Part shown: positions 12,077-52,821 of the stretch, in pieces
Layout: each line of letters opens with the position of its first letter
Position numbering within the stretch: position 1 is the stretch's first letter
Source: an uncultured delta proteobacterium
GTDB lineage: Bacteria; Desulfobacterota; Desulfomonilia; Desulfomonilales; Desulfomonilaceae
Reading direction: 5' to 3'
DNA length: 64,000 nt
Assembly: GCA_963789265.1 (NCBI GenBank)
Contig: CAWBKB010000001.1
Location: 1,472,001 to 1,536,000, forward strand
Notes under the pieces: generated by a model
The model's input: only the letters and a program-made list of their open reading frames with translations
Told to the model about the DNA's origin: nothing
The model's database searches: none
Translations under genes and position numbers: made by a program

Positions 12077-13736
12077 TCACTCAAATTCCACTTCCAAGGG
12101 CACCAAGGGAAACTCCACGGCATTTGTCATGATCTCTTCCATCAGAGTACGAGTCCGCTCAACTTCTTCTTTTGGTGCCTCAACCCAAACGGCATCGTGT
12201 ATGATCATGACAATACGGCATTTCATCTTCCGCCTTTGAAATATAGCTTGGAGGCTTACGAAGGCCAACGTCAGGACATCAGCTTCAGCCTGTTGCAGTA
12301 CCTGTGGCTTTCACCCGTCGTTGCTCGGACACGCCGAATTCCTGGTCAAATCGTCGTCTTCGCCCTACATAGGATTCGACATAACGGTCCTGGGGCTCTT
12401 TCTTCTTCAGATCAGCCATAATCCCATCCAAATACCTCTTAGCCACCGAATATTTAGACCAGAAGGCGTTAATATAACCTTGGGCCTTACGGGTACCCGT
12501 GTTCAGCTTCTGCCCGAGGCCCCAAGCGGTCATTTGGAAGAGTATGCCGAAATTCACCTCTTTGGCCAGGTCTCTTTTCACTTTGTCTGTTGCGCCCTGA
12601 ATACCGCACATCTCCGCGGTCAACCAATGTACGTCTTTACCTTCACGGAAAGCCTTTACCAGTTCAGGGTCTCTGGAAAAGTTCGCCAACAGGCGGAGCT
12701 GGATTTGTTTGTAGTCCGCCTTCAAAAAGACACAGCCCGGAGCGGGAATTAAGAGCGGCCTGCAGATCTCCTTGTTAACGTTTTGCACTGGCGGATCTGA
12801 TGCATAGACGCGACCCGTGCGAGACATGACCTTCCATTCAGGGTGCACCCGAGTGGCACCCGCTGCTTCCTCAAGAAATCGCAAATCTATAGACCTGTCC
12901 TGCCATTCCAATATCTGGGCTGCTATAGGATGTTTTGGGGCTAAGCGCTTCAAGTCTGCTCGTGTTACCACTTCCTTGTTACCGCCACGCCATATTTTCC
13001 GACCCCGGAGCAAATCATAAACATCCCGTTCGGACCATAGATTCATCTCTCTTCCGCCAGTGATCTCATCGGCCAATGCTTTACTTTTGTTGAGAGCATC
13101 CCGGTATGCCACTGCGGCGGCAGCGTGATCTACCCCGATCCCGTAACGGCTCATCTGCAAAAGCATTAGGGCGAGGGCCAACTGGATATAAAAATAATTG
13201 AATTTAAGATCCGGGTCGGCTTCGTGGATTAGTTCGAGCAGTTCATAAGCCAAATCGTATATCAGGTGTGCATCGTAAGCCAGCATACCGCGGATTGATT
13301 CAGGGTAGGGATTATCAGCAAGGACTTTGTGCCATAGCGGATAGTCTTCGGACAAGTATTCGTGTACCAAATGGCTCACAGAGTAATCTTTTTTATATCC
13401 CTCTGAATTCAGCAAGTAAGCCATTAGCTCCGTATCAAGGATAAGATCTGTACGAGTGTGCTCATCTCCGAGGCGCAAATCTCGCCATATACGGCTGATG
13501 CCGTGCACTGCTAACCGGCACCTTTGCGGCTCATACAAGAATTTCTTGATAAGCTGAAATTCTTCAAGACTGACATCTACACACGCATGTTGGACTGATA
13601 GGCCGTACAAGCCGATTATTACTCTATCGTGAAATATGAAAGGAGCTGTAACAGCCACAGGAGTTTCAAGCTGGACAAAATCATTGCTCTGGTTGAGATC
13701 TTCAAGGCTATGAAAGACTTTTAGCTGTATACCCAT
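12077..13736 (-). CDS. Stand-alone family A DNA polymerase (PolA-like), +1 frameshift at 12301-12302
   Basis: TGRV..SDPPVQN, motif A ADYKQIQLRLLA, motif B AKEVNFGILF; removing one G joins ATVLQQAEADVL and motif C IIHDA. Confidence 0.85.
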
Positions 13737-18724: not shown

Positions 18725-19010
18725 TCCCGACACCCGAAATGGTCTTTGCAACCGTTGCACAAAAGGGAGGCGATTCTGCCCAGGACAGAAATCACGGAAC
18801 CCTCAGGTTCAGGCAACCGGCAACGGTGAGTAAAAACGTGACCGGGTAATCACAACCCCCGGCCGGGACACCGTAAGGTGCATTGCCTCTTTTGGGTATC
18901 CCCCGGTAACCTTGAGAAAAAGAAGGCATCTCTCACGAAGCGTGAATCTCGGAAAGAGTCGTGAGAGGTAGCGTCTCCGGCGAAAGTCGGCGAGGTTATG
19001 AAGGATACCC
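18725..19010 (+). ncRNA. Candidate large structured ncRNA, copy A
   Basis: Homologous to 43314-43596 and 50488-50737; covarying stems and GNRA loops. Confidence 0.7.
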
Positions 19011-19042
19011 AAATTCCACAGACCCATTACCTGACCGTCAAT

Positions 19043-27490: not shown

Positions 27491-29155
27491 CTACTTCTTG
27501 CCTCCGTATGCCTTCAGTAGATCTGCGATCTCCTTATGACCATGCTTCTCCGCGATTGCAAGAGGTGTCTCACCAGCATCATCTCTGGCGTTGATATCAG
27601 CACCTTCTTCTAAAAGCATTTTTACGACTTCAGGACGACTGGTCTTAGGGTCTCCAAACCAGCCCGCACTCGCAGCCGCCATCAATGCCGTCCAACCGTT
27701 GTCGTCCTTTGCGTTAATATCGGCGCCTTTTTCCAAGAGCATTTTTACGACTTCAAGATGACTGGCCTCGGGATCTTCAAGCCCGCCACCGGCAGCCGCC
27801 ACCAAGGCTGCCTCAAGGTCCTCAGTTGCTCCTTTCTCCAGAAGCACTCTCACAACATCCGGGTGACCATTTGCAGAAGCTTCGAACATCGCCCTCCCTC
27901 CACCTACAGCCTCTGCATTGAAGTCTGCCCCTTTTGTCAGGAGCAATTTTACGACGTCGAGATGACCTTTCTCAGACGCGGCCATTAATGCAGTCCAACC
28001 ATTTTCGCTCTTTTCATTTATATTGAGCCCTTTGTTCAGAAAGAATCGAACCATTCGAGCCTTGCCCTTCTCGGAAGCCAACATCAAGACCGTAAGCCCC
28101 CCATCGTCTTGGATATAGTACTTCGCATTGATATCAGCCCCTTTTTCGAGGAGAAGCTTGACTACCTGGAGATGACCCTTCTCAGAGGCCGCCATTAATG
28201 CCGTCCAATGATAACCGAAGCTCTTTTCATTGATCTTAGCTCCTTTGTTCAGAAGGAATCGAACCATTGGAATGTTGCCCTTCTCGGAAGCCAGCATCAA
28301 GACCGTCCATCCCGGGTCGTCCTGAGTTCTGTTCCTATACTGTGCATTGACATTAGCACCTTTGTCCAAGAGGCTTTTAGCCAATGTCAGGTCGTCGTTC
28401 CTGATAGCCTCTATCAATGCCTTGTCCTTGTAGCCGGAACCAAGCGCATTAGCGCCATGCGCTTTGAGCAATTCCACGATTCGGACATCCCTCCTTAATG
28501 AAGCTGCTCCCAATGCTGTCAAACCATTATCATTTTGAACATTGACCTGAGATCCGTATTTGAGAAGTAGCTTTGAAATGTCATAGTACCCATGCTCACA
28601 CGCCATTATCAAGGCTGTAGAGCCGTAAGAGGTCTTTGCATTGACCTCAGCCCCCCTTTCTAGAAGCAGTCTGGCTACCGGGAGTTTAACTCTCTCAGGA
28701 AGCTCAACCGGATCATTATCCGTCACTGTCTCCGCAAGCTCATTCAGGTCACTATTCGTCACAGTAGCCATCAATGCCGTCCGTCCTGCACTATCCGTTG
28801 CGTTAACGTCAGCGCCGTAGTCCAGAAGCAGTCTTACTACATCCAGACGACCACTTTCAGAAGCCGACATCAGTGGCGTCTTCCCATCCATCATCTTTGC
28901 GTTGACATCCGCTCCCCTGGAGAGGAGCATTTCTAGAATAGCAAGGTGGCCCTCGGACAAAGCAAGGCTCAATGCATCGGGGTCCAGGGAATTTACATCG
29001 GCTCCCTTTTCCAGAAGTTTCTGCACCTGTTTCAAGTCATTGCAAATGACGGCTTGTTCCAACGCCTCGCCTTGTTTCCCATAGACTGCCGAACAAAACA
29101 TCGTCAGCATGGCAAGCAGCCCAGCATATAACGGAAGAATTGCAAGCTTGCGCAT
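27491..29155 (-). CDS. Secreted ankyrin-repeat protein
   Basis: Signal peptide and many TALMAAS..GH..VVKLLL.KGADIN repeats. Confidence 0.93.
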   Translation of the reverse strand: MRKLAILPLYAGLLAMLTMFCSAVYGKQGEALEQAVICNDLKQVQKLLEKGADVNSLDPDALSLALSEGHLAILEMLLSRGADVNAKMMDGKTPLMSASESGRLDVVRLLLDYGADVNATDSAGRTALMATVTNSDLNELAETVTDNDPVELPERVKLPVARLLLERGAEVNAKTSYGSTALIMACEHGYYDISKLLLKYGSQVNVQNDNGLTALGAASLRRDVRIVELLKAHGANALGSGYKDKALIEAIRNDDLTLAKSLLDKGANVNAQYRNRTQDDPGWTVLMLASEKGNIPMVRFLLNKGAKINEKSFGYHWTALMAASEKGHLQVVKLLLEKGADINAKYYIQDDGGLTVLMLASEKGKARMVRFFLNKGLNINEKSENGWTALMAASEKGHLDVVKLLLTKGADFNAEAVGGGRAMFEASANGHPDVVRVLLEKGATEDLEAALVAAAGGGLEDPEASHLEVVKMLLEKGADINAKDDNGWTALMAAASAGWFGDPKTSRPEVVKMLLEEGADINARDDAGETPLAIAEKHGHKEIADLLKAYGGKK

Positions 29156-30896: not shown

Positions 30897-31706
30897 TCAA
30901 AAGATTTCGGTAGCTGCGAGTCTGACGTGATCTGCGGTGACGATGGTGGATTGGTTGTTTGCCGCTGCGACGAGAGCGCCTCTTGCCAGATGGTTAGCCT
31001 TCCTGAATGTTCCTCCTGAGCCTTGATGGATTGCGGTGATCGCAGCGTCGTCAAAGAGGCTGGATTTGACGCCTGTGAGAGAGAGATGGTGAGAGAGGTA
31101 CTGTTCCATCTCCTGCCTGCTGACCGGCTCCATATGGCTGCGTGCGACGATTCGTGACGCGAGCGGAGCGGAGGTTTGATACATGAGCTTGTCGATGAGG
31201 TTGCTCCGCCCGGTCAGGACAATAGGCAACCACGGTTTTGAGTCAGCCTCGAAGACGGTGATGGTGTGGATCTCGGCAAAGACCTCCAGACGCATCAACG
31301 ATGCCTCATCGACCACCAGCACGATCTTCATCTTCTTTTCCAGGATCACTTCCCGTACTGCCTTCTTGATAAGGCGCACCATGATGGCTTTCTGTGATCC
31401 CGCCATGTGAATACCGAATTCAGCGAGGAAGAGCCGATAAAACTCCAGAATGGAGCCTGAGCAGGCAGTGATCCACACGGTCTTGTATTCGGATGGGTGG
31501 AGCTTTGAGATGACGTACCTGAGAGCCGTGGACTTTCCCGATCCCACCTCGCCGGTGAGGGTCGCAATAGCTCCCAACCTGACCGTATAGTCAAAGCGCT
31601 CTTTGATTGCTGCAATGTCTTGGGTTTCCAGAATGTCCTTGATGTTTATGTCGGTGGGGAACGCCTCCCGGCTCATGCCGAAGAAAGATCGATAGTTGGT
31701 GCTCAT
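30897..31706 (-). CDS. ExeA-like AAA ATPase (transposition regulator)
   Basis: Walker A GEVGSGKST, Walker B VLVVDEA; ATGA overlap with the transposase. Confidence 0.9.
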   Translation of the reverse strand: MSTNYRSFFGMSREAFPTDINIKDILETQDIAAIKERFDYTVRLGAIATLTGEVGSGKSTALRYVISKLHPSEYKTVWITACSGSILEFYRLFLAEFGIHMAGSQKAIMVRLIKKAVREVILEKKMKIVLVVDEASLMRLEVFAEIHTITVFEADSKPWLPIVLTGRSNLIDKLMYQTSAPLASRIVARSHMEPVSRQEMEQYLSHHLSLTGVKSSLFDDAAITAIHQGSGGTFRKANHLARGALVAAANNQSTIVTADHVRLAATEIF

Positions 31707-33004
31707 GTACGGTCCTTCTTTCCCCAAAGACTTCCACCTTGGTATTTTTCTGCCTCCTCGGAGGATTGAAGCTCTATATTTCGCCACTTGTCCCGTTTCA
31801 CCCGGCTATTGACGTGGATATTTACTGGGGCAGCCATGCCGAAAGAGACTCCGCCGAGCATGATCTCGACCTGATCCGGCTCTTGTTCGTGATATAGAAG
31901 GGCGACTTGTTTGCCTATGAGGGGGACAGGCGCTTCAAAGATCCTTCCGTCCAAGCTTATGGTCCTGTCTTTTGCTACTCTTCGTCGCACGGTCTTGCGA
32001 AAATAGTCCCTGAGATTGCGGGGAGTTTCTCTCAGGCATTCCATACGTGACGTAAACCGGGCAAAGGGAGTCTGGCCGGTGGAAGAATGTACCCGCTGGT
32101 GGTAGATGTCACCCAGCCAGAAGAAGAGGGCTTGATTCAGATCGGCAAGCGTAGTGCCTTTGAAGCCGGACAGAAAATCGCCCCTCACTGTGCGGAAGAA
32201 CCGCTCGATTTTCCCTTTGCCTTGTGGCTTGTACGGCCGTGCATGGATAAGGGCGATCCCGAGGCTCGCGGTGACATGCTCCAGGTGATGGGAACGAAAG
32301 GCGCTCCCATTGTCGGTATAGATTTTCCTGGGGAGTCCTCTGGTCAAGAGGGCTTCCTCAAGGGCTTTCAAATACGATGGAAGCGACTCGGTGAGATAAA
32401 ACTCGGCATGAGGAACCAGGCGAGAGTGATCGTCGATGAATGCAAGGAGATAGGTTTTCCTCTTCTTCCCCTCGTGCTCCACGCTCGGGCCATGCATGCA
32501 GTCGGACTGCCACAGATCGTTCGGTAACTCAGCTTCGAATTTCCGTCGATCTTCGAGCCTGGCCTCATCTCCCTTCATCAGACCATTGGTTCTCAGGAAG
32601 CGGTGTACCGTTGTAGCGGTGAGAGTGATGCCAGGCGATACCAGTCGTCTCTTGTTCATCTCACGGATCAGCCGGGCGACCGTTGCCTTGGAAAGCTCCG
32701 CCCTCAAACGGATCAAAGCCAAACCGGTCTCTTCATCTATGGCGCGGCTCTTCCCATGATCTGATCTATCATGGTTAGCCAGCGCCTCCAGTTTGCCGCC
32801 AGAGTCTTTGTAGAGCTTCACCCAGCGCAGGATAGTGCTCCGGGTAATACGGGTCTTGTCCGAGAATGGAATCACCCATTTTCGGTCGCACTTGTCCCTT
32901 ATGAGCCTCTCCTGCTCGCCAGGTTCGAGCGCCGCATGTCCTACGAGGTCATGAATCACCCCGAACCGAAACGTTGCAATCTGCTTTTTCTTATCTTCCT
33001 CCAT
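31703..33004 (-). CDS. DDE (rve) transposase with Mu-like C-terminal domain
   Basis: WQSDCMHG, FIDDHSR, YTDNGSAF and GKGKIERFFRT motifs. Confidence 0.93.
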   Translation of the reverse strand: MEEDKKKQIATFRFGVIHDLVGHAALEPGEQERLIRDKCDRKWVIPFSDKTRITRSTILRWVKLYKDSGGKLEALANHDRSDHGKSRAIDEETGLALIRLRAELSKATVARLIREMNKRRLVSPGITLTATTVHRFLRTNGLMKGDEARLEDRRKFEAELPNDLWQSDCMHGPSVEHEGKKRKTYLLAFIDDHSRLVPHAEFYLTESLPSYLKALEEALLTRGLPRKIYTDNGSAFRSHHLEHVTASLGIALIHARPYKPQGKGKIERFFRTVRGDFLSGFKGTTLADLNQALFFWLGDIYHQRVHSSTGQTPFARFTSRMECLRETPRNLRDYFRKTVRRRVAKDRTISLDGRIFEAPVPLIGKQVALLYHEQEPDQVEIMLGGVSFGMAAPVNIHVNSRVKRDKWRNIELQSSEEAEKYQGGSLWGKKDRT

Positions 33005-33108
33005 CGATCTGCCTCCTTGGGTATGTTGTCTGGGGTGGTACTCCCAAGACAATCCCAGGACAACGACACTCTTCGGTAGGGTGTGTGAGCGTCGATGGAC
33101 AGTGCAGA

Positions 33109-33555
33109 TTAGATGCGACGGGAAACCGGGTTCTCATTTTTGAGTATCAGCTCATCGAATCCCTCCAGCAGGCGTTTGCTCCATTCCTGCCCAAACCGGG
33201 CACACACTCTCCGTGTAAGAGACCTCAGCCAATGGCCCTGCCGAGACCGTGAAATGCCTGCGGGCCATCTCCCATGCTCCAGCCTGAAAGCGATGGACGA
33301 ACGGACCGTCTCGATAGACGCTTGTACCCGTTTGAAATAGCCCGATGGTCGCGCCCTCATCACGCACCTGCACTCCGGGCAGCGATACCGTCGCAAAAAG
33401 AGCTGTTCAGAAAAACCGTCAAAAAAGGCAGGGACAAAGCCATGATACCAGACCCGACGCCCCTCACACCGAGGGCACGCCTCCGGTCTCGGCCAAGGAA
33501 AATCCCGCCCCCTCGCAACTATCTCCTTGATGGAAACAAGAACAGGGAATATCAT
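33109..33555 (-). CDS. Zn-finger accessory protein (DUF6431-like)
   Basis: CPRC..WYHG..RRYRCPEC; first gene of the transposon. Confidence 0.75.
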   Translation of the reverse strand: MIFPVLVSIKEIVARGRDFPWPRPEACPRCEGRRVWYHGFVPAFFDGFSEQLFLRRYRCPECRCVMRARPSGYFKRVQASIETVRSSIAFRLEHGRWPAGISRSRQGHWLRSLTRRVCARFGQEWSKRLLEGFDELILKNENPVSRRI

Positions 33556-33782
33556 CAGAACATCCTTTTGTAGGGCCTTACGGCCCGTACATGTTTCGGG
33601 CGGTAGCTCCGTCAAGCCACCGCCCTCTTCATTCCGTCCATCTATTCTGATATTTTCCCCTGCCAGGTCAACCTATTCTGAAAATTTCACCCCTTTTCTG
33701 TCCATTCAATTCGAAATCCTACACAAGGTTCAGACTACCCCTTCTTCGCGTCAGCTATGATCATGTAGTCAAGCGAGAAGGG

Positions 33783-39558: not shown

Positions 39559-39596
39559 CCGGAATTCATCTACAGAGGTTGAAAAGGAGAATCTTT

Positions 39597-40145
39597 ATGA
39601 GGCGGATATTCTCTTTGTTTTTTTTTATTTCTATATCCCTCGTTTCGACTGTCCTGGCTCAAACGAGCGATCCAGGGGCTTGTGACATCAATCGAGCAAT
39701 TTTCAACAACGACCTAGACCGGATCGAGAAGCTCCTGGACGCCGGATGCGACGTGAACGGGAAGTGCGGGGGCGAGACGCCGCTGCTGGCTGTCTGCAAG
39801 CTCATGGGAAGCCCCGTTGGAGACGAGCAAAAAGCAAAGGTGATACGGATTCTCCTTGAAAGAGGCGCAAATCCGAATACTCAGGACAACCTGGGAGAAA
39901 CCCCTTTAATAAAAGTGTTGAAAATCTCTTCTGCCGATAATCTCTCCGTCTCAGTTATCGAACTCCTGCTGGACAGAGGAGCCGATCCCAACGTGAAAGA
40001 CCGAACTGGCAAATCTGCGATCCAAGCAGGTTTGACCCACAACAACAGGCAGGTATCAGACGTTTTTGCCGCATATCTGAAACGTCAGAAGCAAGCCCAG
40101 CGGGAGGTACAGCCTGCCGCTGAGAGAGACGTTCAGCAGAAGTGA
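39597..40145 (+). CDS. Secreted ankyrin-repeat protein
   Basis: Signal peptide; GETPL and LLDRGADPN repeats. Confidence 0.85.
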   Translation: MRRIFSLFFFISISLVSTVLAQTSDPGACDINRAIFNNDLDRIEKLLDAGCDVNGKCGGETPLLAVCKLMGSPVGDEQKAKVIRILLERGANPNTQDNLGETPLIKVLKISSADNLSVSVIELLLDRGADPNVKDRTGKSAIQAGLTHNNRQVSDVFAAYLKRQKQAQREVQPAAERDVQQK

Positions 40146-40249: not shown

Positions 40250-41296
40250 ATGGGCTTATTGGGGAGGTTATTCGGGAAGAAATCAGATGACGGCTCTCAG
40301 GCTGCTAAGGACGAGCAGCTTGCCTGCCTCTATGAAGCCTGCTCAACTGGGAATCTTCCCATCATCAGCGATCCTCCGGTGATCCTGAAAAGAGGCGAGA
40401 CGGCACATTTCGTATCCCCCGTCGCCGTGATCGAGCAGAAAACCGATATAACAACTTATCGAGCCTATGCCGGGACTCGTTTGAAGATAGGAAGCCTCCC
40501 CATCTACCTTGGAGGAAGTGCGCCGAAGAAGGTCTCCAACGAAGCTCTGACTCCGATGGGTGACGGCTGGCTTATCATCACGAACCGGCGGGTTGTCGTC
40601 TCAGGAACCAAGATCAATTACAGCACCCAACTCGACAGGATTACCAACTGGAAACTGTTCACAGACGCCATTCAGATACTGTGGGAAGGGAGATACGGCG
40701 GCAGATTCTACAAAATGGATGATCCAAGAGTTCCTGCCCTCATACTTGAAACCCTCATATCAGGGGTCCCGTCCCCCGAATCAGTGGGGCTGGACTCAAG
40801 TGTGTCTCCAACGACTCCTGAAGACTTCGTGTATGCGGCTTCGGAGGGGCTACTAGACGTTGTGGTCGAAAGCCTGGACAAAGGCATGGACCCTAACACA
40901 ACGGAAGACGATCACGGCTTCACCGCTTTGATAGCTGCCGCAAGCAACGGACATTCCGACCTGGTGAGCCTTCTTCTTGATGTAGGCGCGGATCCCGACG
41001 TTAAAACAGACCTTGGCTACACGGCTTTGATGTTTGCAGCTTTGGACGGCTACGTCGAGACAGTAAAACTTCTTTTAGGTGCTGAGGCCAAGGTGAACGT
41101 CAAAAACGATGAAGGCGCAACGGCACTGATACTCGCAGCCTTGAATGGTCATTATGAAGTCGTGGAAAGCCTGCTCCGAAAAGGAGCCAGGGTAAATCTT
41201 AAAACCAAAAATGGAAGAACTGCTCTGGATGCTGCCATCTATGGGGACCACGCGGAGATAGCAGAGCTTTTGCGGGCGTATGGGGCGAAGGGTTGA
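40250..41296 (+). CDS. PH-like N-terminal domain plus ankyrin repeats
   Basis: G.LIITNRRVV followed by about four ankyrin repeats. Confidence 0.85.
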   Translation: MGLLGRLFGKKSDDGSQAAKDEQLACLYEACSTGNLPIISDPPVILKRGETAHFVSPVAVIEQKTDITTYRAYAGTRLKIGSLPIYLGGSAPKKVSNEALTPMGDGWLIITNRRVVVSGTKINYSTQLDRITNWKLFTDAIQILWEGRYGGRFYKMDDPRVPALILETLISGVPSPESVGLDSSVSPTTPEDFVYAASEGLLDVVVESLDKGMDPNTTEDDHGFTALIAAASNGHSDLVSLLLDVGADPDVKTDLGYTALMFAALDGYVETVKLLLGAEAKVNVKNDEGATALILAALNGHYEVVESLLRKGARVNLKTKNGRTALDAAIYGDHAEIAELLRAYGAKG

Positions 41297-43313: not shown

Positions 43314-43596
43314 CTCCCGATGACCTGAAGGATCTCTGCAACGGTTGCAGACGGGGAGGCAATGAGTCGTAGGAAAGCAATGATGGAACCCGGCGTTCAG
43401 GCAGACCCTCCAAAGGGGTCCCGTGAGAACATCACTCAGTAACCACTCTGAGCTACGGCAGGTGCGTTGGCTCTCTGGGGTATCCTCGACAGCCCTGGAA
43501 AAAGAAGGCAGCTCTCGTGGAGCCTGGACCTCTCCCAGTGAGGGTCGCGAGAGTAACGCCTCCGGTTCATTCCGGCGGGGTTGTTCGGGGGATACC
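43314..43596 (+). ncRNA. Candidate large structured ncRNA, copy C (most diverged)
   Basis: Same stem architecture as copies A and B with compensatory substitutions. Confidence 0.7.
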
Positions 43597-43743
43597 AAAA
43601 CTACTTCTAATGATGCTATTGGGCATCAACCAGAGTTTACAGGATTCTCTTTGATGAACTTCTGACGTAAGGGAATATATAGTTGGAGTCCTTTCAACTC
43701 TTCAGCATCGGCCAGCCAGTTTCGGGGCAGCCAATAAGCCTAT

Positions 43744-44046: not shown

Positions 44047-44493
44047 ATGATAGTCTTCCTGTCTGTCTCCATCAAGGAGATTGTGGAGAGGGGGCGGGAT
44101 TTTCCCTGGCCCCGGCCCAAGAATTGCCCTCGGTGCGGCGGTACTCGGTTATGGGGTCATGGATTTGTCACTGCCATTTTCGATGGTTTTGTTACCCATG
44201 TTTTGCTCCGACGCTGGCGTTGTCCGGAATGCCGCTGCGTGGTGAGGATTCGGCCCAGCGGATATTTCCCTCGATTTCAGGCTTCTGTTGACACTATTCG
44301 TTCGTCCATTGCCTTTAGGCTGGCAAATGACAGATGGCCTGGAGATATTCCACGGTCCAGGCAAGGGCATTGGCTGAGATCTCTTAAAAGGAGAGTGAAT
44401 GCCTTGCTTGGCCAGAGATGGAGCAGACGTCTGCTGGAGGGTTTCGATGAGTTGATGCTCAAAAATGAGCCCCCGGTTTGCCGTCGCATCTAA
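44047..44493 (+). CDS. Zn-finger accessory protein (DUF6431-like)
   Basis: CPRC..WGHG..RRWRCPEC; homolog of 33109-33555. Confidence 0.75.
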   Translation: MIVFLSVSIKEIVERGRDFPWPRPKNCPRCGGTRLWGHGFVTAIFDGFVTHVLLRRWRCPECRCVVRIRPSGYFPRFQASVDTIRSSIAFRLANDRWPGDIPRSRQGHWLRSLKRRVNALLGQRWSRRLLEGFDELMLKNEPPVCRRI

Positions 44494-44598
44494 TCTGCGA
44501 AGCCCGTCGATCCGGTTGCACCCTACCGAAGAGTGCCGTTGTGCTGGGATTGTGTTCGGGGTACCACCCCAGGCAACATACCTAAGGAGGGAGACCCG

Positions 44599-45901
44599 AT
44601 GGACGAAGATGAGAAAAAGCGGATTGCGGCCTTCAGGTTTGGCGTGATTCACGACCTGGTGGGGAATGTGGAGCTGGAACCCGGTGAGCAGGAGCGCCTG
44701 ATACGGGAGAAGTGCGACCGGAAATGGGTGATACCCTTTTCACAGAAGACTCGTATTACCCGCAGCACAATTTTGCGCTGGGTGAAGCTCTACAAGGAGT
44801 CCGGCGGCAAATTGGAGGTGTTGGCCAACCGAGGGAGGTCTGATAACGGCAAGAGTCGCGCCATAGACGAAGAGACCAGTTTGGCTTTGATCCGTTTGAG
44901 GTATGAGCTTCCCAAGGCTACCATAGCCCGTCTCTTGCGTGAGATGAACAAGCGACAACTGGTCTCTCCGGGGCTAGTCCTTACTAGATCAACAGTACAC
45001 CGCTTCTTGAGCAGCAATGGTCTCATGAAGCAGAATCAGATCACGGCCGAAGACCGCAGACGGTTTGAAGCTGAACTGCCCAATGATCTGTGGCAGTCGG
45101 ATTGCATGCACGGGCCAAAAGTGGATCATCAGGGGAAGAATCGAAAGACCTATCTCATTGCTTTCATAGACGACCATTCCAGGTTGGTTCCTCATGCCGA
45201 GTTTTACCTCTCCGAGTCACTCCCGTCGTTTCTGAAAGCCCTTGAAGAAGCCCTCTTGACCAGAGGGCTACCCAGAAAAATCTATACGGACAATGGAAGT
45301 GCCTTTCGCTCCCATCATCTGGAACACGTCACGGCAAGCCTTGGGATTGCTCTCATCCATGCAAGGCCGTACAAACCACAGGGAAAGGGAAAAATAGAGA
45401 GGTTCTTCCGAACCGTGAGGGGGGACTTTCTGTCTTGCTTCAAAGGAAATACGCTTGCCGAGCTGAATCAAGCCCTGTTCTTCTGGTTGAATGACATCTA
45501 TCATCAGAGAATACACTCCTCAACAGGGCAAACCCCCTTTGCTCGGTTCACTTCAAGAATGGAATGCCTGAGAGAAGCCCCTCACAATCTCAAAGACTAT
45601 TTTCGCAAGACCGTGCGGCGCAGAGTAGCAAAGGACAGGACCATAAGCCTGGACGGAAGGATCTATGAAGCACCTGTCTCACTCATCGGGCGTCAGGTGG
45701 CCCTTCTGTACCACGAGGGGGAACCGGAGCGAGTAGAGATCATGCTCGGCGGGGTCTCCTACGGTATGGCCACCCCCGTAAACCTCCACGTCAATTGCCG
45801 GGTGAAGCGGGATAAGGTACAGCAGCATTAGACTGGAAGGCACGGAACAATCCGAAAAATACCAGAGTGGCGGCCTCTGGGGGAAGAGAGGCCGTAAATG
45901 A
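44599..45901 (+). CDS. DDE transposase, +1 frameshift at 45816-45817
   Basis: Same motifs as copy 1; removing one G restores ...EKYQSGGLWGK and the ATGA overlap with the ATPase. Confidence 0.9.
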
Positions 45902-46707
45902 GTACCAATTACCGCTCATTTTTCGGTATGACTCGTGAGGCTTTCCCAACGGATATAAGCGTCAAGGACATCATGGAGACTCAAGATATCAAGGCTATCA
46001 AAGAGCGCTTTGATTATACGGTCAGGCTGGGGGCCATTGCGACCATCACCGGTGAGGTGGGATCGGGAAAGTCTACAGCGCTCCGGTACGTTATCTCGAA
46101 GCTTCACCCCTCAGAATACAAAACCCTCTGGATTACTGCCTGTTCAGGCTCGATCCTGGAGTTTTATCGGCTCTTTCTCGCTGAATTCGGCGTACACATG
46201 GCAGGCTCGTCAAAAGCGGTGATGGTACGCCTCATAAAAAAGGCAATACGGGAAATCATCCTTGAGAAGAAGATGAAAATCGTGCTGGTCGTCGATGAGG
46301 CGGGCCTATTGCGCCTGGAGGTCCTTGCCGAACTCCACACCATCACCCAATTCGAGGCTGACTCAAAACCCTGGCTCCCCATCATCCTTACGGGGAGGTC
46401 GAATCTCATCGACAAACTCATGTATCAAACATCCCTGCCGCTCGCTTCAAGGGGCGTCGCACGAACCCACATGGAACCTGTAGAAAGACAAGAGATGGAG
46501 CATTACCTACTCCATCACCTTGCTCTCACCGGCGTCAAATCCAACCTCTTCGATGATCCGGCCATCACAGCCATCCATCAAGGCTCAGGAGGAATATTCA
46601 GAAAGGCAAATCATCTGGCAAGAGGGGCTCTCATCGCAGCGGCCGACAGCCAATCTACCCTCGTTACCGCCGACCACGTCAGGCTGGCTGCCACGGAAAT
46701 CTTTTAA
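45898..46707 (+). CDS. ExeA-like AAA ATPase
   Basis: GEVGSGKST and VLVVDEA motifs. Confidence 0.9.
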   Translation: MSTNYRSFFGMTREAFPTDISVKDIMETQDIKAIKERFDYTVRLGAIATITGEVGSGKSTALRYVISKLHPSEYKTLWITACSGSILEFYRLFLAEFGVHMAGSSKAVMVRLIKKAIREIILEKKMKIVLVVDEAGLLRLEVLAELHTITQFEADSKPWLPIILTGRSNLIDKLMYQTSLPLASRGVARTHMEPVERQEMEHYLLHHLALTGVKSNLFDDPAITAIHQGSGGIFRKANHLARGALIAAADSQSTLVTADHVRLAATEIF

Positions 46708-46818
46708 GCAACCAAAACCGGGCCGGACCACCAGGCCCGGTCCAGACAATCTGAAAAAAACAGGAGGATTATCCCAAATAATCAGAGAAAATCGGTCAAT
46801 CTAATGTGGGAAACAACA

Positions 46819-47929
46819 CCTTGTCCAACAGAACCTTCACTGGTTCCACGTTACGACTACGTGAGGCCCACATCAGTGCTGTCCCACCATCCCTATCCTT
46901 GGCATTGACGTCCGCTCCCTTGTCCAACAGGGTCTTCAGCACCTCAACGTGACCAAACCACGAGGCATACATCAGTGCTGTCCTGCCAAAGAAACCGATG
47001 GCATTGACACCCGCTCCCTTGTCCAACAGAACCTTCACTGTCTCCACGCGACCAGATAATGAAGCCTCCATCAGTAATGTCAACTCACTCGGTGTCATCG
47101 CATTGACATCCCCACCTTCAGCCAAGAGACCTTCCACAGCAGCGGTGTCGCCTCTTCTGACAGCTTGATCTAAAAGAAAGTAGCTATCACGCTTGGCTTC
47201 ATGCTCTGAACAGAAACAGACTTCGATTTCAGCATGAGGATCACTCGGTTTGAAATCACTTATCTCGTATTTCACTTGTTTAGGGGAAATAAGTGTTTGA
47301 GTGCTTGTCGCCGGTTCTCCACGTACTCGAAAATTCATTTTGCTAGCCTGATTTCCATCTATAATAAAAACAGCCTTTCCTATCGTACCGTTCCAAAACG
47401 AACCTGTTCCGTAAATATACCTCGCGCAAATACCCTCGTATTTCGCCTTGTATCGCACGCGCGTCACCGTAGCAGAATGACCTGAAAACGTCACTTTCTT
47501 TGCCATCCAGTGATCGCCCGGAACCCCCGTGGGTTCGCCGTCTTCGTCTGAAAGAAACTTGTGGACGGAATCCCACAACCCCGGAAGATTACCTTTCTCA
47601 CTTACTTCTGTGAATTCTACTTCTTGGTCGTTAACCCAAGTTTCAAATTTAATAAATTGAAAGGTCTTACCAAAAACTTTCGGAAAACCAACCCACTCCG
47701 TGGTGGTTTCCCCAGCGTTAAAGAAGTGAAAGACAGCATCGACGATATAGCTATCGTACAGCAACTTAATAGTTACTTCTTCGGATTCCATTCTAATCGA
47801 TTGGTGGTGACCTTTTGGCGACGGACCTCCCCCAACTAATCCCATCGGCATCTCATTTGTTTCTCCCAGACTAGTGAAGAAAAGAGATGCCCCGCTCGCC
47901 AGGCACAAAAGAAGTACAAATAATCTCAT
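46819..47929 (-). pseudogene. Secreted DUF4424-like plus ankyrin protein, interrupted by transposon copy 2
   Basis: Signal peptide, IRMESEEV.I, YIYGTGSFW.G.I, then ankyrin repeats cut at the TSD. Confidence 0.85.
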
Positions 47930-48099
47930 GGGTATCCCCCGTAAAACCCATTGCCTGCTCAGTTTTAGTGTGAGCAGTCCCCCGTGACCGGACCCAGGCA
48001 AGAACCGGCGTGACGTTGATGAAAAAGTCCATTTTAGGCTGTTGCTAAATATACCTAGCCCTCCGCTGCTGCGTCAACCATTTCTTCCACCGCATCGTC

Positions 48100-48300: not shown

Positions 48301-48536
48301 ACTCACGGTCACAGGCTAACCAATGATTCTTACCTGTCCTTCGAAGGGACACCTAGCCTCAAGGCGTCACCGCATGTTGTCCTTCCGTACTCGTCATCTC
48401 GTTTGTCAGCTCCCCCAGCGGATATTCTCGACAAAATTGACCTCCTGAGAACCACGTAGGGCGACGATCTGGGTCAGAGCAAGGGGTAAGGCAGGGGGCA
48501 ACAGAGGTTGCGGGAAATCGCATCTGAGTGGCTCGT
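48301..48536. repeat. ~230 bp non-coding repeat F2, copy a (copy b 50758-50984)
   Basis: Shared ccaatgatt..tacctgtccttcga.gggacacctagcctcaa, tgtccttccgtactc, ccagcggatattctc and aaatcgcatctgag.ggctcgt. Confidence 0.85.
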
Positions 48537-49340: not shown

Positions 49341-50405
49341 CTAATCTTCGAGGCGTGGCACTGTGTCTTCGGCAATGAGATCGTCAAGAATAGCAATCCC
49401 TTTGATCGGGTGTTCGTTGAGATGCGAGATCATGGGAAAGATGTGTTTCTGAGCAAACTCCAGAGCGAGCAGAACATGGCTGAAGAACCACGTCTTGTCT
49501 TGGGGCTCCCTGTCAGCCACATTCATGCACTCTAAGATTTGCTGCCATTTACTTCGCCGCTTCGACTTCTTACCTGCGAAAAGGCTCCTAGCCTGCCCGT
49601 GAGCAACTGCTGAGCGGATGTCATAAAGGTGTCCTAAGAGCGTTGTCATTTGCGTGAAATTGAGTTTTCGAGCCGTCTGATCAAAACCCCACAGATCAGC
49701 ATCCTTCACGAATTTGGTGTAATAGGCTGAGCCAATCAGTCTGAACTGCACAGAGATTTCTGCCGAGGCTCCTTGAACAAACAGACTTTCAAGACCGGCA
49801 ATCATGAGAACGACGGCTTCGCAGAGGTCCAAGTAATCGTAATAACGATATTTCCCAGAAAAACCGTTTATAGTCCAAAAAGACTTCTGGAGGAGCACGA
49901 TGCTCCCCGCCAAGGATTCGTTGCTGTGAAAGAGATCAAACCAGGCTTCAACAGAGGAATTAGAAGGAATCCAGTCCTGCTGATCGGGTCGCCGATTAAG
50001 CGAGAAACCGCTGTGAGAAGATGATTCCGTGAAAATCTCTTCGTCAGTGGCTTGGCCCTCTTTTTTTGGCTGGCCCAGCATGAAAAGCAGCTTCAGCTCA
50101 ATATCTTTTGGCAGATTCTTAGGATACGAGAAATAGAATATTTTCCGCGGACGACGATCATTCACGAACAAGGCAAGCAAAATGTTTTCCAAATCCTGGA
50201 CTGCTCGGTAAATCTCGGCGTCTTGAAAGTTGAGCCGAATTTGTCGGTTAAAAATCATGGAGAAGGAGCGGTCATCGACGCACCAATCGGCGAATCTGAA
50301 CGAGGAATATTTTGCAGTAGTGTAAGAGCCAGGCCCCACTACTGCCGAAAGCATAAAGGTTTCTTGCTCAATTTGCTGCCGCTTCAATGTTCCTACCTTC
50401 AACAT
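49341..50405 (-). CDS. Apea-like HEPN domain protein
   Basis: AGLESLF...EIS.QF and LYDIRSAVAHG (RxxxxH). Confidence 0.7.
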   Translation of the reverse strand: MLKVGTLKRQQIEQETFMLSAVVGPGSYTTAKYSSFRFADWCVDDRSFSMIFNRQIRLNFQDAEIYRAVQDLENILLALFVNDRRPRKIFYFSYPKNLPKDIELKLLFMLGQPKKEGQATDEEIFTESSSHSGFSLNRRPDQQDWIPSNSSVEAWFDLFHSNESLAGSIVLLQKSFWTINGFSGKYRYYDYLDLCEAVVLMIAGLESLFVQGASAEISVQFRLIGSAYYTKFVKDADLWGFDQTARKLNFTQMTTLLGHLYDIRSAVAHGQARSLFAGKKSKRRSKWQQILECMNVADREPQDKTWFFSHVLLALEFAQKHIFPMISHLNEHPIKGIAILDDLIAEDTVPRLED

Positions 50406-50487
50406 CTCGGTACTGTCTTGGTCGTTGTGTTGGATTGGAGCTATAGATACGACATGGAAAGAAACTTCGCAATATGATGAAGCGAAA

Positions 50488-50737
50488 GGGAGGCGATTCT
50501 GCCCAGGAAGGAAATCACGGAACCCTCAAGTTCAGGCAACCGGCAACGGTGAGTGCAAACGTGACCGGGTACACGGGTACTGCGAAGGACCCACCCCCGG
50601 CTGGGACTTGACATCGCCTCTCAAGGGTATCTCCGACAGCCTTGGAAAAAAAAGGCCCCTCCGCGAAGCCTGAACCTCGAAAGAGTCGCGAGAGTAATGC
50701 CTCCGACGAAAATCGGCGGGGTTGTTGAGGGATACCC
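50488..50737 (+). ncRNA. Candidate large structured ncRNA, copy B
   Basis: Homologous to copies A and C; perfect GTTCAGGC/GCCTGAAC long-range complement. Confidence 0.7.
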
Positions 50738-50757
50738 AAGTTCACTTGCCCTTCATG

Positions 50758-50984
50758 ACTCACGGGTTTACCCAATGATTTCTACCTGTCCTTCGATGGG
50801 ACACCTAGCCTCAACTCTCGGCACTTTGTCCTTCCGTACTCATCATCTCGTTTCTCAGCTCTCCCAGCGGATATTCTCAAAAGATGGACGCCCTGAGAAC
50901 AACGTAGAGCCACGATCTGGGGTCGGTGAAGGGTAAGGGTCGGGAGAAAAAGCACGACCCGCAAATCGCATCTGAGAGGCTCGT
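50758..50984. repeat. ~230 bp non-coding repeat F2, copy b
   Basis: Alignment with 48301-48536. Confidence 0.85.
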
Positions 50985-51292
50985 GGCTGCCGCGCTTCAG
51001 GAGCGTATTGGAGAGGCATCGTGTCGCTACCGGAAGTGGGCGGAGGGACATTTCGGGTAGAATATCTCCCTTCGCTTTGTCATGCGGGTCCGCTTAATAA
51101 CCATCCTGAAAAAATATTCACCTTATTTCATAAGGGGATTTTGTATATTTCGACTCGCTGCAAGTTGCATTCTAAACATGTTGACTTACATTCTAGTCTA
51201 CCAACCTTGTCTCTCAGATAAGACGAACCTGCCAAACATCTCTGTCACGGAAAACGTCTTTCTTACATCAACACTCAATGGAGGTGTGCAAC

Positions 51293-51472
51293 ATGATACC
51301 GGAATACCCAGCATCCATAACAATAAGGGTTCCACATGACATCCGCTCACAGCTCGAATCCATGTCTCTGAGGGAGGATAAGCCCATCTCTCGCATAGTC
51401 AGGTCAGTTATAGCAGAGGGGCTGAAACAGAAAATGGCTCCTGACAATGACTTCATCGAACTCGAAGCGTAA
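51293..51472 (+). CDS. Ribbon-helix-helix (CopG-like) protein
   Basis: GGAGG RBS; SITIRVP..IR..LE......KPISRIVR..I.EGL. Confidence 0.7.
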   Translation: MIPEYPASITIRVPHDIRSQLESMSLREDKPISRIVRSVIAEGLKQKMAPDNDFIELEA

Positions 51473-51484
51473 TCGAAAAAACAA

Positions 51485-51511
51485 AAACCCGGATGGGCTA
51501 AGTCCGGGTTT
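51485..51511. terminator. Intrinsic terminator-like hairpin
   Basis: aaacccgga-tgggctaag-tccgggttt preceded by an A run. Confidence 0.55.
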
Positions 51512-51666
51512 CACAAGAAGTTAGTTTTGGTGCCTTCTTTGCTTTGGAATGTAAGCACCTGTGGTCAGCAACAGCGGCTTGGGACCGCCATTACCGATGG
51601 GCTTTTGTATAGTATAGGCATACAGAGTGCAAAAGTCCATCGCCGGGTAACGATGGAGCGATATAA

Positions 51667-52821
51667 ATGCTAACAGAAAGACACAAAACAGAGCCAGATT
51701 TACCCCCTCAAGACCTCGTAACCGCTGCCTTGGACTACGCCCGCAAAGGCTTCCGAATCTTTCCCCTTCATTCAGTTGACGATCAGGGACATTGCTCCTG
51801 TGGAAAACAAGACTGCGGCAGCCCCGGCAAACACCCGCGGAACTGGAACGGTCTCAAGGGAGCCACCACCGACGAGACCCAAATCCTCAAGTGGTGGACG
51901 AAGTTCCCTGATGCGAACATAGGTATCCGCACCGGCAAGGGTCTCTTCGTCCTAGACGTGGATGAGGACGAAGGCGAAGATTCTCTCCGTGACCTTGAAG
52001 AGAAGTGTGGAAAACTTCCAGAGACCTGGGAATGCCTCACCGGACGTGGACGCCATATCTATCTGCTATCACCCACCGACAAATACATAAAGAGTTCAAG
52101 AAGCCTGATCGGAACCAAACTGGACGTCCGCTGTGAGGGAGGCTACGTAGTTGCGCCTCCTTCCCGGCATTACTTTGGAAACCGCTATGAATGGGAATGT
52201 ACGTGTCATTCAGAAGATATTCCTATGGCGGAGGCTCCTGAATGGATGATTCGACTCGCGTGTACGAAGAAGAGATCGAAATCAAATCAGAGGTGGGGCA
52301 GTACCTTCAAACCAGTCCTTCACATCGGGGAGCGGAACGAGACCCTGTTCAAAGAGGCATGCCATCTCAGAGACCTGGGCTTATCCAGGGAAAGGGTAGA
52401 GCATTATACACGCCTCCGCAATCGGTGTGATTGCCAGCCTCCTCTCAAAGACACGGAAGTGGAGACCATACTTCGTCAGGCATACAGATATTCCAAACGC
52501 CCCTGTCGAAAAGGCCGATTGTCTCCGGGTTCCGAGAGAGTTTTCCGTTACCTCGTGGAAAGATCATTGCATAGGGGCAACTGCTTGCTCAGCAAGGAAG
52601 AGATAGCGATTGCTGTCGGTTTGAAGAAGAGGCAGGTCTTCACCTGTATTCGCCAGTTGGAAAGACAAGGGCTATTACGGGTTCAGGAGCATAACGGTAT
52701 GGAAAGTCTATATTTTCCCCAGACCCATGCAGTACCCATGCAGTCCTTACATATAGGGGCAAGGGAAAGTACAGATTCTGAGTCCCCTATACAAGAGACA
52801 CCCCTGAGAGTCATGAAATAA
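51667..52821 (+). CDS. Bifunctional DNA primase/polymerase (Prim-Pol) with PriCT-like and HTH domains
   Basis: FPL..C.CG...C.SPGKHP, NIGI.TG..FVLDVD, TGRGRHIY, DVR..GGYVVAPPS.H, GERNETLF; C-terminal HTH. Confidence 0.88.
   Translation: MLTERHKTEPDLPPQDLVTAALDYARKGFRIFPLHSVDDQGHCSCGKQDCGSPGKHPRNWNGLKGATTDETQILKWWTKFPDANIGIRTGKGLFVLDVDEDEGEDSLRDLEEKCGKLPETWECLTGRGRHIYLLSPTDKYIKSSRSLIGTKLDVRCEGGYVVAPPSRHYFGNRYEWECTCHSEDIPMAEAPEWMIRLACTKKRSKSNQRWGSTFKPVLHIGERNETLFKEACHLRDLGLSRERVEHYTRLRNRCDCQPPLKDTEVETILRQAYRYSKRPCRKGRLSPGSERVFRYLVERSLHRGNCLLSKEEIAIAVGLKKRQVFTCIRQLERQGLLRVQEHNGMESLYFPQTHAVPMQSLHIGARESTDSESPIQETPLRVMK

Follow-up and report, generated by a model that had tools for sequence, protein, structure and literature searches.

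Large, intricate bacterial RNAs that lack an assigned function are now few, and such RNAs have repeatedly led to new biology. The ornate orphan RNAs, among them ROOL, GOLLD, OLE, and raiA, are roughly 200 to 800 nt long, and ROOL and GOLLD are linked to mobile DNA. A second precedent comes from the cobalamin riboswitch, with its L5-L13 contact, and from the glmS ribozyme, both of which are held by kissing-loop or pseudoknot clamps. The RNA described here is much smaller than the ornate orphan RNAs (about 255 nt, against their roughly 200 to 800 nt). It lies in a stretch of 64,000 nucleotides, called the window below. Three copies in the window (A, B, and C) align over about 255 nt, and each folds into two domains, each of which is closed by a long helix. 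The RNA forms a family with a common secondary structure, and a helix between the two domains is conserved and compensated across that family. The original prediction concerned positions 50488-50737, which start, in copy B, where the closing helix of domain 1 starts and stop where that of domain 2 stops, and proposed that a long-range pairing links the domains as a pseudoknot or a switch.

Architecture and distribution of the RNA

How widespread is this RNA? A covariance model, R1, was built from the 16 full-length copies of alignment A3. Within the window's own genome, blastn finds nine matches to the RNA and R1 finds 11. Among 70 genomes of the same family, 15 have R1 matches (19 in one of them); the order-level genome set consists of these same 70 genomes. 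In 150 other genomes sampled from the phylum (two of the same family and 148 outside it), R1 has no match. A collection of species representatives held at least 117 stretches fitting the search patterns, of which nhmmer confirmed five loci, about 112 being chance occurrences in GC-rich genomes. Among the matches listed, all five confirmed loci are in records named "Desulfomonilaceae bacterium," so that the host family of the RNA, which is related to sulfate reducers, is probably Desulfomonilaceae. A pattern scan of metagenomes returned 40 loci, 19 of which hold 21 R1 matches. Viral contigs gave two pattern matches, neither of them real, and blastn found no match in plasmid and phage collections.

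At the gathering score, Rfam 15 has no match in the whole window. With E values up to 10, there is no plus-strand RNA match in 49500-52500, in 50470-50760, or in the divergent homologue L177, and the only matches are two weak, terminator-like ones on the minus strand. A narrow literature search on Desulfomonile together with structured or noncoding RNA found no relevant paper. Judged from Rfam 15 and this narrow search, the two-domain RNA family of about 255 nt is previously undescribed.

Table 1. Positions of the RNA, its helices, and neighboring features in the window. Helix coordinates are from the constrained fold of copy B.
Feature	Position	Strand	Remark
Copy A	18756-19019	+	229 bits to model R1
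Copy C	43345-43606	+	207.9 bits to model R1
Domain 1	50488-50622	+	Copy B
P1	50488-50499 with 50610-50622	+	Domain 1 helix
P2	50502-50506 with 50601-50605	+	Domain 1 helix
P3	50515-50519 with 50560-50564	+	Domain 1 helix
GAAC	50520-50523	+	Proposed alternative local partner of GUUC; nearly invariant
P3a	50524-50527 with 50551-50555	+	Domain 1 helix; helix 4 of the pair counts
Long-range helix, 5' strand	50530-50537	+	GUUCAGGC; in the loop enclosed by P3a, directly 5' of hairpin P3b
P3b	50539-50542 with 50547-50550	+	Domain 1 hairpin, GCAA loop
P4	50565-50569 with 50596-50600	+	Domain 1 helix
Domain 2	50625-50737	+	Copy B
P6	50625-50644 with 50717-50737	+	Domain 2, 20 bp
A-rich junction	50645-50652	+	Domain 2
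P7	50653-50666 with 50686-50702	+	Domain 2 helix with 9-nt bulge
Long-range helix, 3' strand	50668-50675	+	GCCUGAAC; inside the 9-nt bulge of P7
P7c	50676-50678 with 50683-50685	+	Domain 2 hairpin, GAAA loop
P8	50703-50706 with 50713-50716	+	Domain 2 helix
Promoter-like site	50449-50478	+	ACGACA, 18 nt, TATGAT; consensus 9/12; ends about 7-10 nt before P1 of copy B
Terminator-like hairpin and U-run	50653-50671	-	Inside copy B
Palindrome, TGCAAC-N-GTTGCA type	18747-18759		Directly 5' of copy A
Palindrome, TGCAAC-N-GTTGCA type	43335-43349		Directly 5' of copy C
Three-gene unit	44047-46707	+	Starts 440 nt downstream of copy C
Three-gene unit	30897-33615	-	
Second noncoding module	50769-50984		Starts about 20 nt past the 3' end of copy B
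Second noncoding module	48317-48536		
Ankyrin-repeat proteins	27491-29155; 39579-40145; 40250-41296; 46796-48001		Four genes
Short direct repeats	1430-1521/2568-2659; 2474-2536/3953-4015		Around a GGDEF gene
483-aa open reading frame	12285-13736	-	Only family match: DNA polymerase family A, residues 212-465

For the secondary structure, copy B was folded while the 8-mers of the long-range helix were kept unpaired, and the result was projected on A5, a model-guided alignment of 55 matches. Standard pairs form in 85.7% of its 3961 cells. Both sides have changed in 58 of the 88 pairs, against 35.9 in shuffles, none of 500 of which reaches 58, and sliding the partners by one to three columns lowers the pairing to 33 to 43%. 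An earlier alignment, A4, gives the same picture. In domain 1, helices 2, 3, 4, 7, and 8 are 89 to 95% paired, with three or four pairs in each changed on both sides. The weakest helix in the counts is P1, whose value of 61% is partly an effect of the alignment, since its 3' strand varies in length. In domain 2, helix 10 is 87.8% paired and has 13 of its 20 pairs changed on both sides, while helices 11 to 14 are 78 to 96% paired. The A-rich junction, GAAAAAGAAGG, is nearly invariant among copies. GNRA loops (GAAA, GUAA, and GCAA) predominate in three hairpins, as far as a rough parse can tell. The terminator-like hairpin and U-run on the minus strand of copy B are accounted for by the eight A's that this copy has in its A-rich junction, where other copies have GAAAAAGAAGG.

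Which strand is folded, and is it expressed as RNA? Cells with G-U outnumber those with A-C by 450 to 158, which indicates that the plus strand is the folded one. Indels of lengths not divisible by three are found throughout the alignment, so a protein-coding reading does not fit. Just upstream of copy B is a promoter-like site; a consensus scan gives three such sites in the region compared with 1.4 +/- 1.3 in shuffles, a difference that is weak alone. When the flanks were read by eye, extended -10 boxes resembling TGnTAnnnT were seen just before P1 in several homologues, and the promoter position of copies A and C looks degenerate.

The helix between the two domains

In the letters of the window, GTTCAGGC in domain 1 of copy B is the exact reverse complement of GCCTGAAC in domain 2, just as the original prediction had it, and a duplex of these 8-mers has a calculated energy of -12.3 kcal/mol. 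The partner in copy C is GCCTGGAC, giving one U-G pair, and that in copy A is GCGTGAAT, giving one G/G mismatch. Both had been described correctly, and copy A has a terminal G-U besides. Is an 8-nt match remarkable? In copy B alone it is not beyond chance, because a perfect complement of at least 8 nt arises in 19.1% of 5000 dinucleotide-preserving shuffles of its two domains. Only across homologues does the pairing rise above chance.

The two 8-mers were left free both in R1 and in the two collection patterns, and the alignment was therefore not fitted to the long-range helix. In A5, on which the helix counts are based, the eight long-range pairs are formed in 96.9% of 322 cells; slid controls are 11 to 50% paired. 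Shuffled pairings of the two strands are also 95.5% paired, both strands being highly conserved. Both sides have changed in five of the eight pairs (six cells), compared with a shuffle mean of 1.1, and none of 500 shuffles reaches five. These are crossing base pairs retained by compensatory change, a pattern that fits the pseudoknot class. A smaller homologue set gives the same picture. An all-against-all column scan for further long-range pairs found only correlations of subfamilies.

A row-by-row count can be made for the 38 of 55 rows of A5 in which both strands are ungapped, two of these rows being identical. The helix is fully Watson-Crick in 15 rows and differs by G-U or U-G only in 16, while seven rows have at least one mismatch (copy A, L167, L168, L175, L178, L221, and L198, the last with two). 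The 17 rows omitted are fragments without one domain or have a gapped strand (L201, L150, L173, L022, L174, and L154); on inspection, L201 was found to form seven pairs and one G/A mismatch. Complementarity in a larger homologue set had been fixed beforehand as the point on which the prediction would turn, and it is retained, with 31 of the 38 rows fully paired.

All of the double changes come from only three sequences or lineages. L177 (GUCUGGAC/GUCCAGAC) differs at four pairs without any loss of complementarity; the other compensated rows are L171 (GUUCGGGC/GCCCGAAC) and L160 (GUUCAGGU/ACCUGAAC). In a tree built without the 16 columns of the helix, the neighbors of L177 are L149 and L159, both of which carry two wobble intermediates (GUUCGGGC/GCCUGGAC). 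As read from their sequences, the three fit a putative stepwise change in which U-A becomes C-G by way of U-G, and A-U becomes G-C by way of G-U. Position 5 has switched between A and G repeatedly in the tree, in every case with a base able to pair with the U opposite, and that partner on the 3' strand goes from U to C only where position 5 is G (two of two cases). Of course, many rows are paralogues or kin, so the helix counts do not represent independent samples.

What kind of contact do these changes describe? Our preferred reading, in which we place somewhat better than even confidence, is that the plus strand holds a structured RNA gene whose selected long-range helix is most likely a static tertiary clamp, not a switch. 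Copy B would be one gene of the family of about 255 nt, read from the plus strand, and GUUCAGGC in the junction loop of domain 1 would pair with GCCUGAAC in the 9-nt bulge of the long arm of domain 2. Selection maintains this helix, and as a clamp it would fix the domains alongside each other in a single compact fold. We infer that the two strands pair inside a single RNA chain and that transcription of the RNA is driven by a promoter of its own; we also take it to work in trans, as a catalytic or scaffold RNA borne on the mobile part of genomes. The likeness to large catalytic or scaffold RNAs drawn in the original prediction goes no further than resemblance. At about 255 nt, the RNA is compact enough for structure work, its architecture is well supported, and the inter-domain helix is testable. 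If that helix is intramolecular, it would provide a clean natural example of a clamp from a junction to a bulge.

The most serious alternative, which is possible but to which we give distinctly less weight, is that the pairing is real but takes place between molecules. RNAs would then join head to tail, domain 1 of each pairing with the domain 2 of a neighbor, to make dimers, rings, or cages. Covariation is blind to the difference between pairing within and between molecules. Indeed, for ROOL and GOLLD it is reported (PMC12286853) that loop pairings taken from covariation to be tertiary contacts turned out to bridge separate chains. Here, copies consisting only of domain 2 retain the bulge: at least seven copies without domain 1 still have GCCUGAAC or a near variant, which means that intramolecular pairing is not the sole reason for the conservation of that strand. 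One locus, L212, holds a piece with domain 1 only and a separate 5'-truncated piece. However, nothing in the data requires intermolecular pairing, and single-domain copies look like decaying remnants, L187 having lost the motif that the orthologous locus L164 retains. From the helices of copy B, each strand is estimated to be about 24 to 31 stacked base pairs from the short inter-domain linker, and an intramolecular contact therefore looks geometrically possible. If the 8-bp helix did act as a bridge, which we regard as a rather slim prospect, RNA-only rings or cages might result, and the RNA could be a small, multicopy counterpart of the nanocages of ROOL and GOLLD, akin to them in kind though not by sequence. 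RNA-only assemblies would then be extended to a much smaller RNA, and single-domain copies might serve in them as caps or competitors. A suggestion of similar boldness is that the RNA may be a new class of ribozyme, with its active fold locked by the 8-bp helix.

Could the static clamp instead be one of two states? The other half of the original prediction was a two-state switch, in which GUUC would alternate between GAAC nearby and its distant partner in domain 2. The local pairing is possible, as had been stated, and nearly every copy could form both. GGAAC is almost invariant and has no demonstrated partner, and an unconstrained minimum-free-energy fold chooses the local hairpin. The evolutionary evidence points the other way. 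Although the local pairing is possible in 94.3% of 157 cells, there are no both-side changes, and none of 500 shuffles scores lower. L177, whose long-range helix has been rebuilt in full, has acquired an A/C mismatch in its local pairing. The four bases that separate GAAC from GUUC make up the 5' strand of helix P3a, which occurs in two alternating forms and covaries in 20 to 21 sequences. Because it encloses GUUCAGGC and starts right after GAAC, the local hairpin and P3a are mutually exclusive. Furthermore, with the genes downstream varying from copy to copy, there is no ligand-type context for a switch. Lacking covariation and clashing with a covarying helix, the switch is not supported, and we consider it improbable, whereas the pseudoknot half of the prediction stands on its 31 paired rows and five compensated pairs. 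On this evidence a fixed fold is favored, with GUUCAGGC exposed in the loop at the P3a/P3b junction and docked on the bulge of P7.

It is very unlikely that the two 8-mers are conserved separately for protein or target binding, unpaired and complementary by accident, for although chance can supply a complement this long in a single sequence and both strands are highly conserved, domain-2-only copies keeping theirs, three independent lineages have changed both strands in register (six pairs altogether), the U-to-C change on the 3' strand occurs only with a partner that is already G, and single changes are mostly wobble compatible (16 rows, against seven with a mismatch).

Genomic setting

Copies A, C, and B, together with a fourth copy 1.9 kb before the window, are all on the plus strand in a region rich in mobile elements. 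Its genes include those for an IS1595 transposase, a Prim-Pol, AbiU2, and a Schlafen-type ATPase, and integrase genes are located 9 kb upstream and 2 kb downstream of the island. The flanks of the RNA are mosaic, with some copies sharing the upstream side only and others the downstream side only; in one pair of copies, the shared stretch starts at the boundary between domains 1 and 2. Many pieces are 5' truncated with a constant 3' end, fewer are 3' truncated, and some have internal losses (fragment coverage along the RNA was read qualitatively only). The 3' flanks are partly conserved for about 6 to 60 nt in several subgroups, and the copies of one genome are scattered in the tree among those of other genomes. 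Many diverged copies per genome, mosaic flanks, and truncated remnants together suggest that the role of the RNA is bound up with mobile DNA.

Might the structure then work as single-stranded DNA, serving mobile elements as a site of recombination or replication? Flanks that break at or inside the element, the pattern of truncation, and the integrase genes on either side of the island would suit such a site, and the G-T bias is also compatible with one DNA strand. Yet the GNRA tetraloops and the A-rich junction are typical of RNA, promoter-like boxes are found directly upstream, terminal inverted repeats are absent, and no recombinase, HUH, or relaxase gene keeps a constant distance from the element. 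We therefore give this possibility very little credence, and a role as an integration target would not, in any case, exclude an RNA gene.

Does any gene accompany the RNA? Clustering the open reading frames of the flanks gave no gene family at a fixed position. Depending on the copy, the downstream gene is a Prim-Pol 920 nt away, DUF4424 on the opposite strand, a transposon, a histidine kinase, a glyoxalase, or an ankyrin gene on the opposite strand. A gene resembling that for HU lies upstream in five loci but was rejected as a constant partner, being absent beside the copies of the window's genome. DUF4388, the histidine kinase, and the glyoxalase recur nearby in no fixed arrangement and were likewise set aside. 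So was an RNase_H_2-like gene, found about 50 nt upstream in two loci but belonging to the core genes of 68 of the 70 genomes. This gene (PF13482) is single copy in those 68 family genomes, and extra copies with 78 to 100% identity are present in four genomes. Two of the extra copies (G080:C492:19610-20434, at L236, and G091:C63:6955-7779, at L169) end about 50 nt upstream of an RNA on the same strand.

Several other features of the region deserve mention in their own right. Two copies of a transposon-like unit are present in the window, each comprising a small DUF6431-like open reading frame, an rve integrase with a Mu-transposase C-terminal domain, and an AAA_22 ATPase. A second repeated noncoding module occurs twice in the window's genome, its copies being 80% identical over 221 nt. 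Its best reading frames shift along its length, so it does not look coding, and stretches resembling it are found 0.3 to 1.5 kb downstream of RNA copies in other genomes. A short palindrome directly precedes copies A and C, and two RNA remnants elsewhere (L184 and L008) are followed, about 60 nt downstream, by a hairpin of similar kind; this may be a trace of an earlier tandem arrangement, or of an operator or terminator in common. The density of ankyrin-repeat proteins in the island is unusual for a bacterium. One of the four has very strong repeat scores, and an ankyrin gene also adjoins an RNA copy in the genome G080. A segment of at least 3.25 kb that contains a full RNA copy is duplicated with 99.9% identity on two contigs (G000:C1:1468558-1471807, with L004, and G000:C5:417527-420776, with L003), which could be a recent duplication or an artifact of assembly or binning. 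Finally, the short direct repeats around the GGDEF gene are 90 to 94% identical, and the window contains a 483-amino-acid open reading frame with a partial match to DNA polymerase family A and no family assignment for its N-terminal part (Table 1).

Comparison with known systems

How does the RNA compare with structured RNAs whose roles are understood? In the clamps of riboswitches and ribozymes, a loop helix between subdomains fixes the global fold, as is proposed here. Unlike them, the contact in this RNA runs from a junction loop to a bulge in a helix and comprises 8 bp, and the RNA has no Rfam match. A riboswitch or other cis-regulatory leader was rejected on the ground that downstream genes vary among copies, with no conserved gene class at a constant position; a cis-regulatory role is accordingly unlikely.

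The guide RNAs of transposons (the IscB omega RNA, or HEARO, the TnpB omega RNA, and the IS110 bridge RNA) are, like this one, structured, about 150 to 300 nt long, equipped with pseudoknots, multicopy, and carried on mobile DNA. Each was considered and rejected, none of the copies inspected having an IscB, TnpB, or IS110 gene beside it. For the omega RNAs, (i) Pfam finds no OrfB, RuvC, or HNH nuclease among the neighbors of the window copies and in seven wider loci, (ii) the TnpB zinc ribbon (PF07282) has no match in the genome, (iii) the Rfam models for HEARO and IS605-orfB have no match, and (iv) the scaffold edge carries no copy-specific, guide-like segment, the 3' flank being partly conserved and the 5' flank promoter-like. 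As for the bridge RNA, the genome's five IS110 genes (PF01548) are all more than 50 kb from any RNA copy.

Retron msr/msd RNAs, the noncoding RNAs of DRT systems, and group II intron domains are also structured and borne on mobile elements, and the 5'-truncated copies described here recall incomplete reverse transcription. Unlike the RNAs linked to reverse transcriptases, however, this family includes 3'-truncated copies too. The inspected flanks show no poly-A tail or target duplication. A retron or DRT RNA was rejected, as none of the five RVT_1 matches in the genome adjoins a copy and the nearest is about 11 kb from a fragment.

By analogy, then, the closest kind appears to be the orphan ornate RNAs. 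Unlike them, this RNA is confined to one bacterial family in the collections searched and is present in several copies per genome with many truncated remnants. Like ROOL, GOLLD, OLE, and raiA, whose function is likewise unassigned, it combines multiple helices and GNRA loops with long-range loop pairing recognized from covariation.
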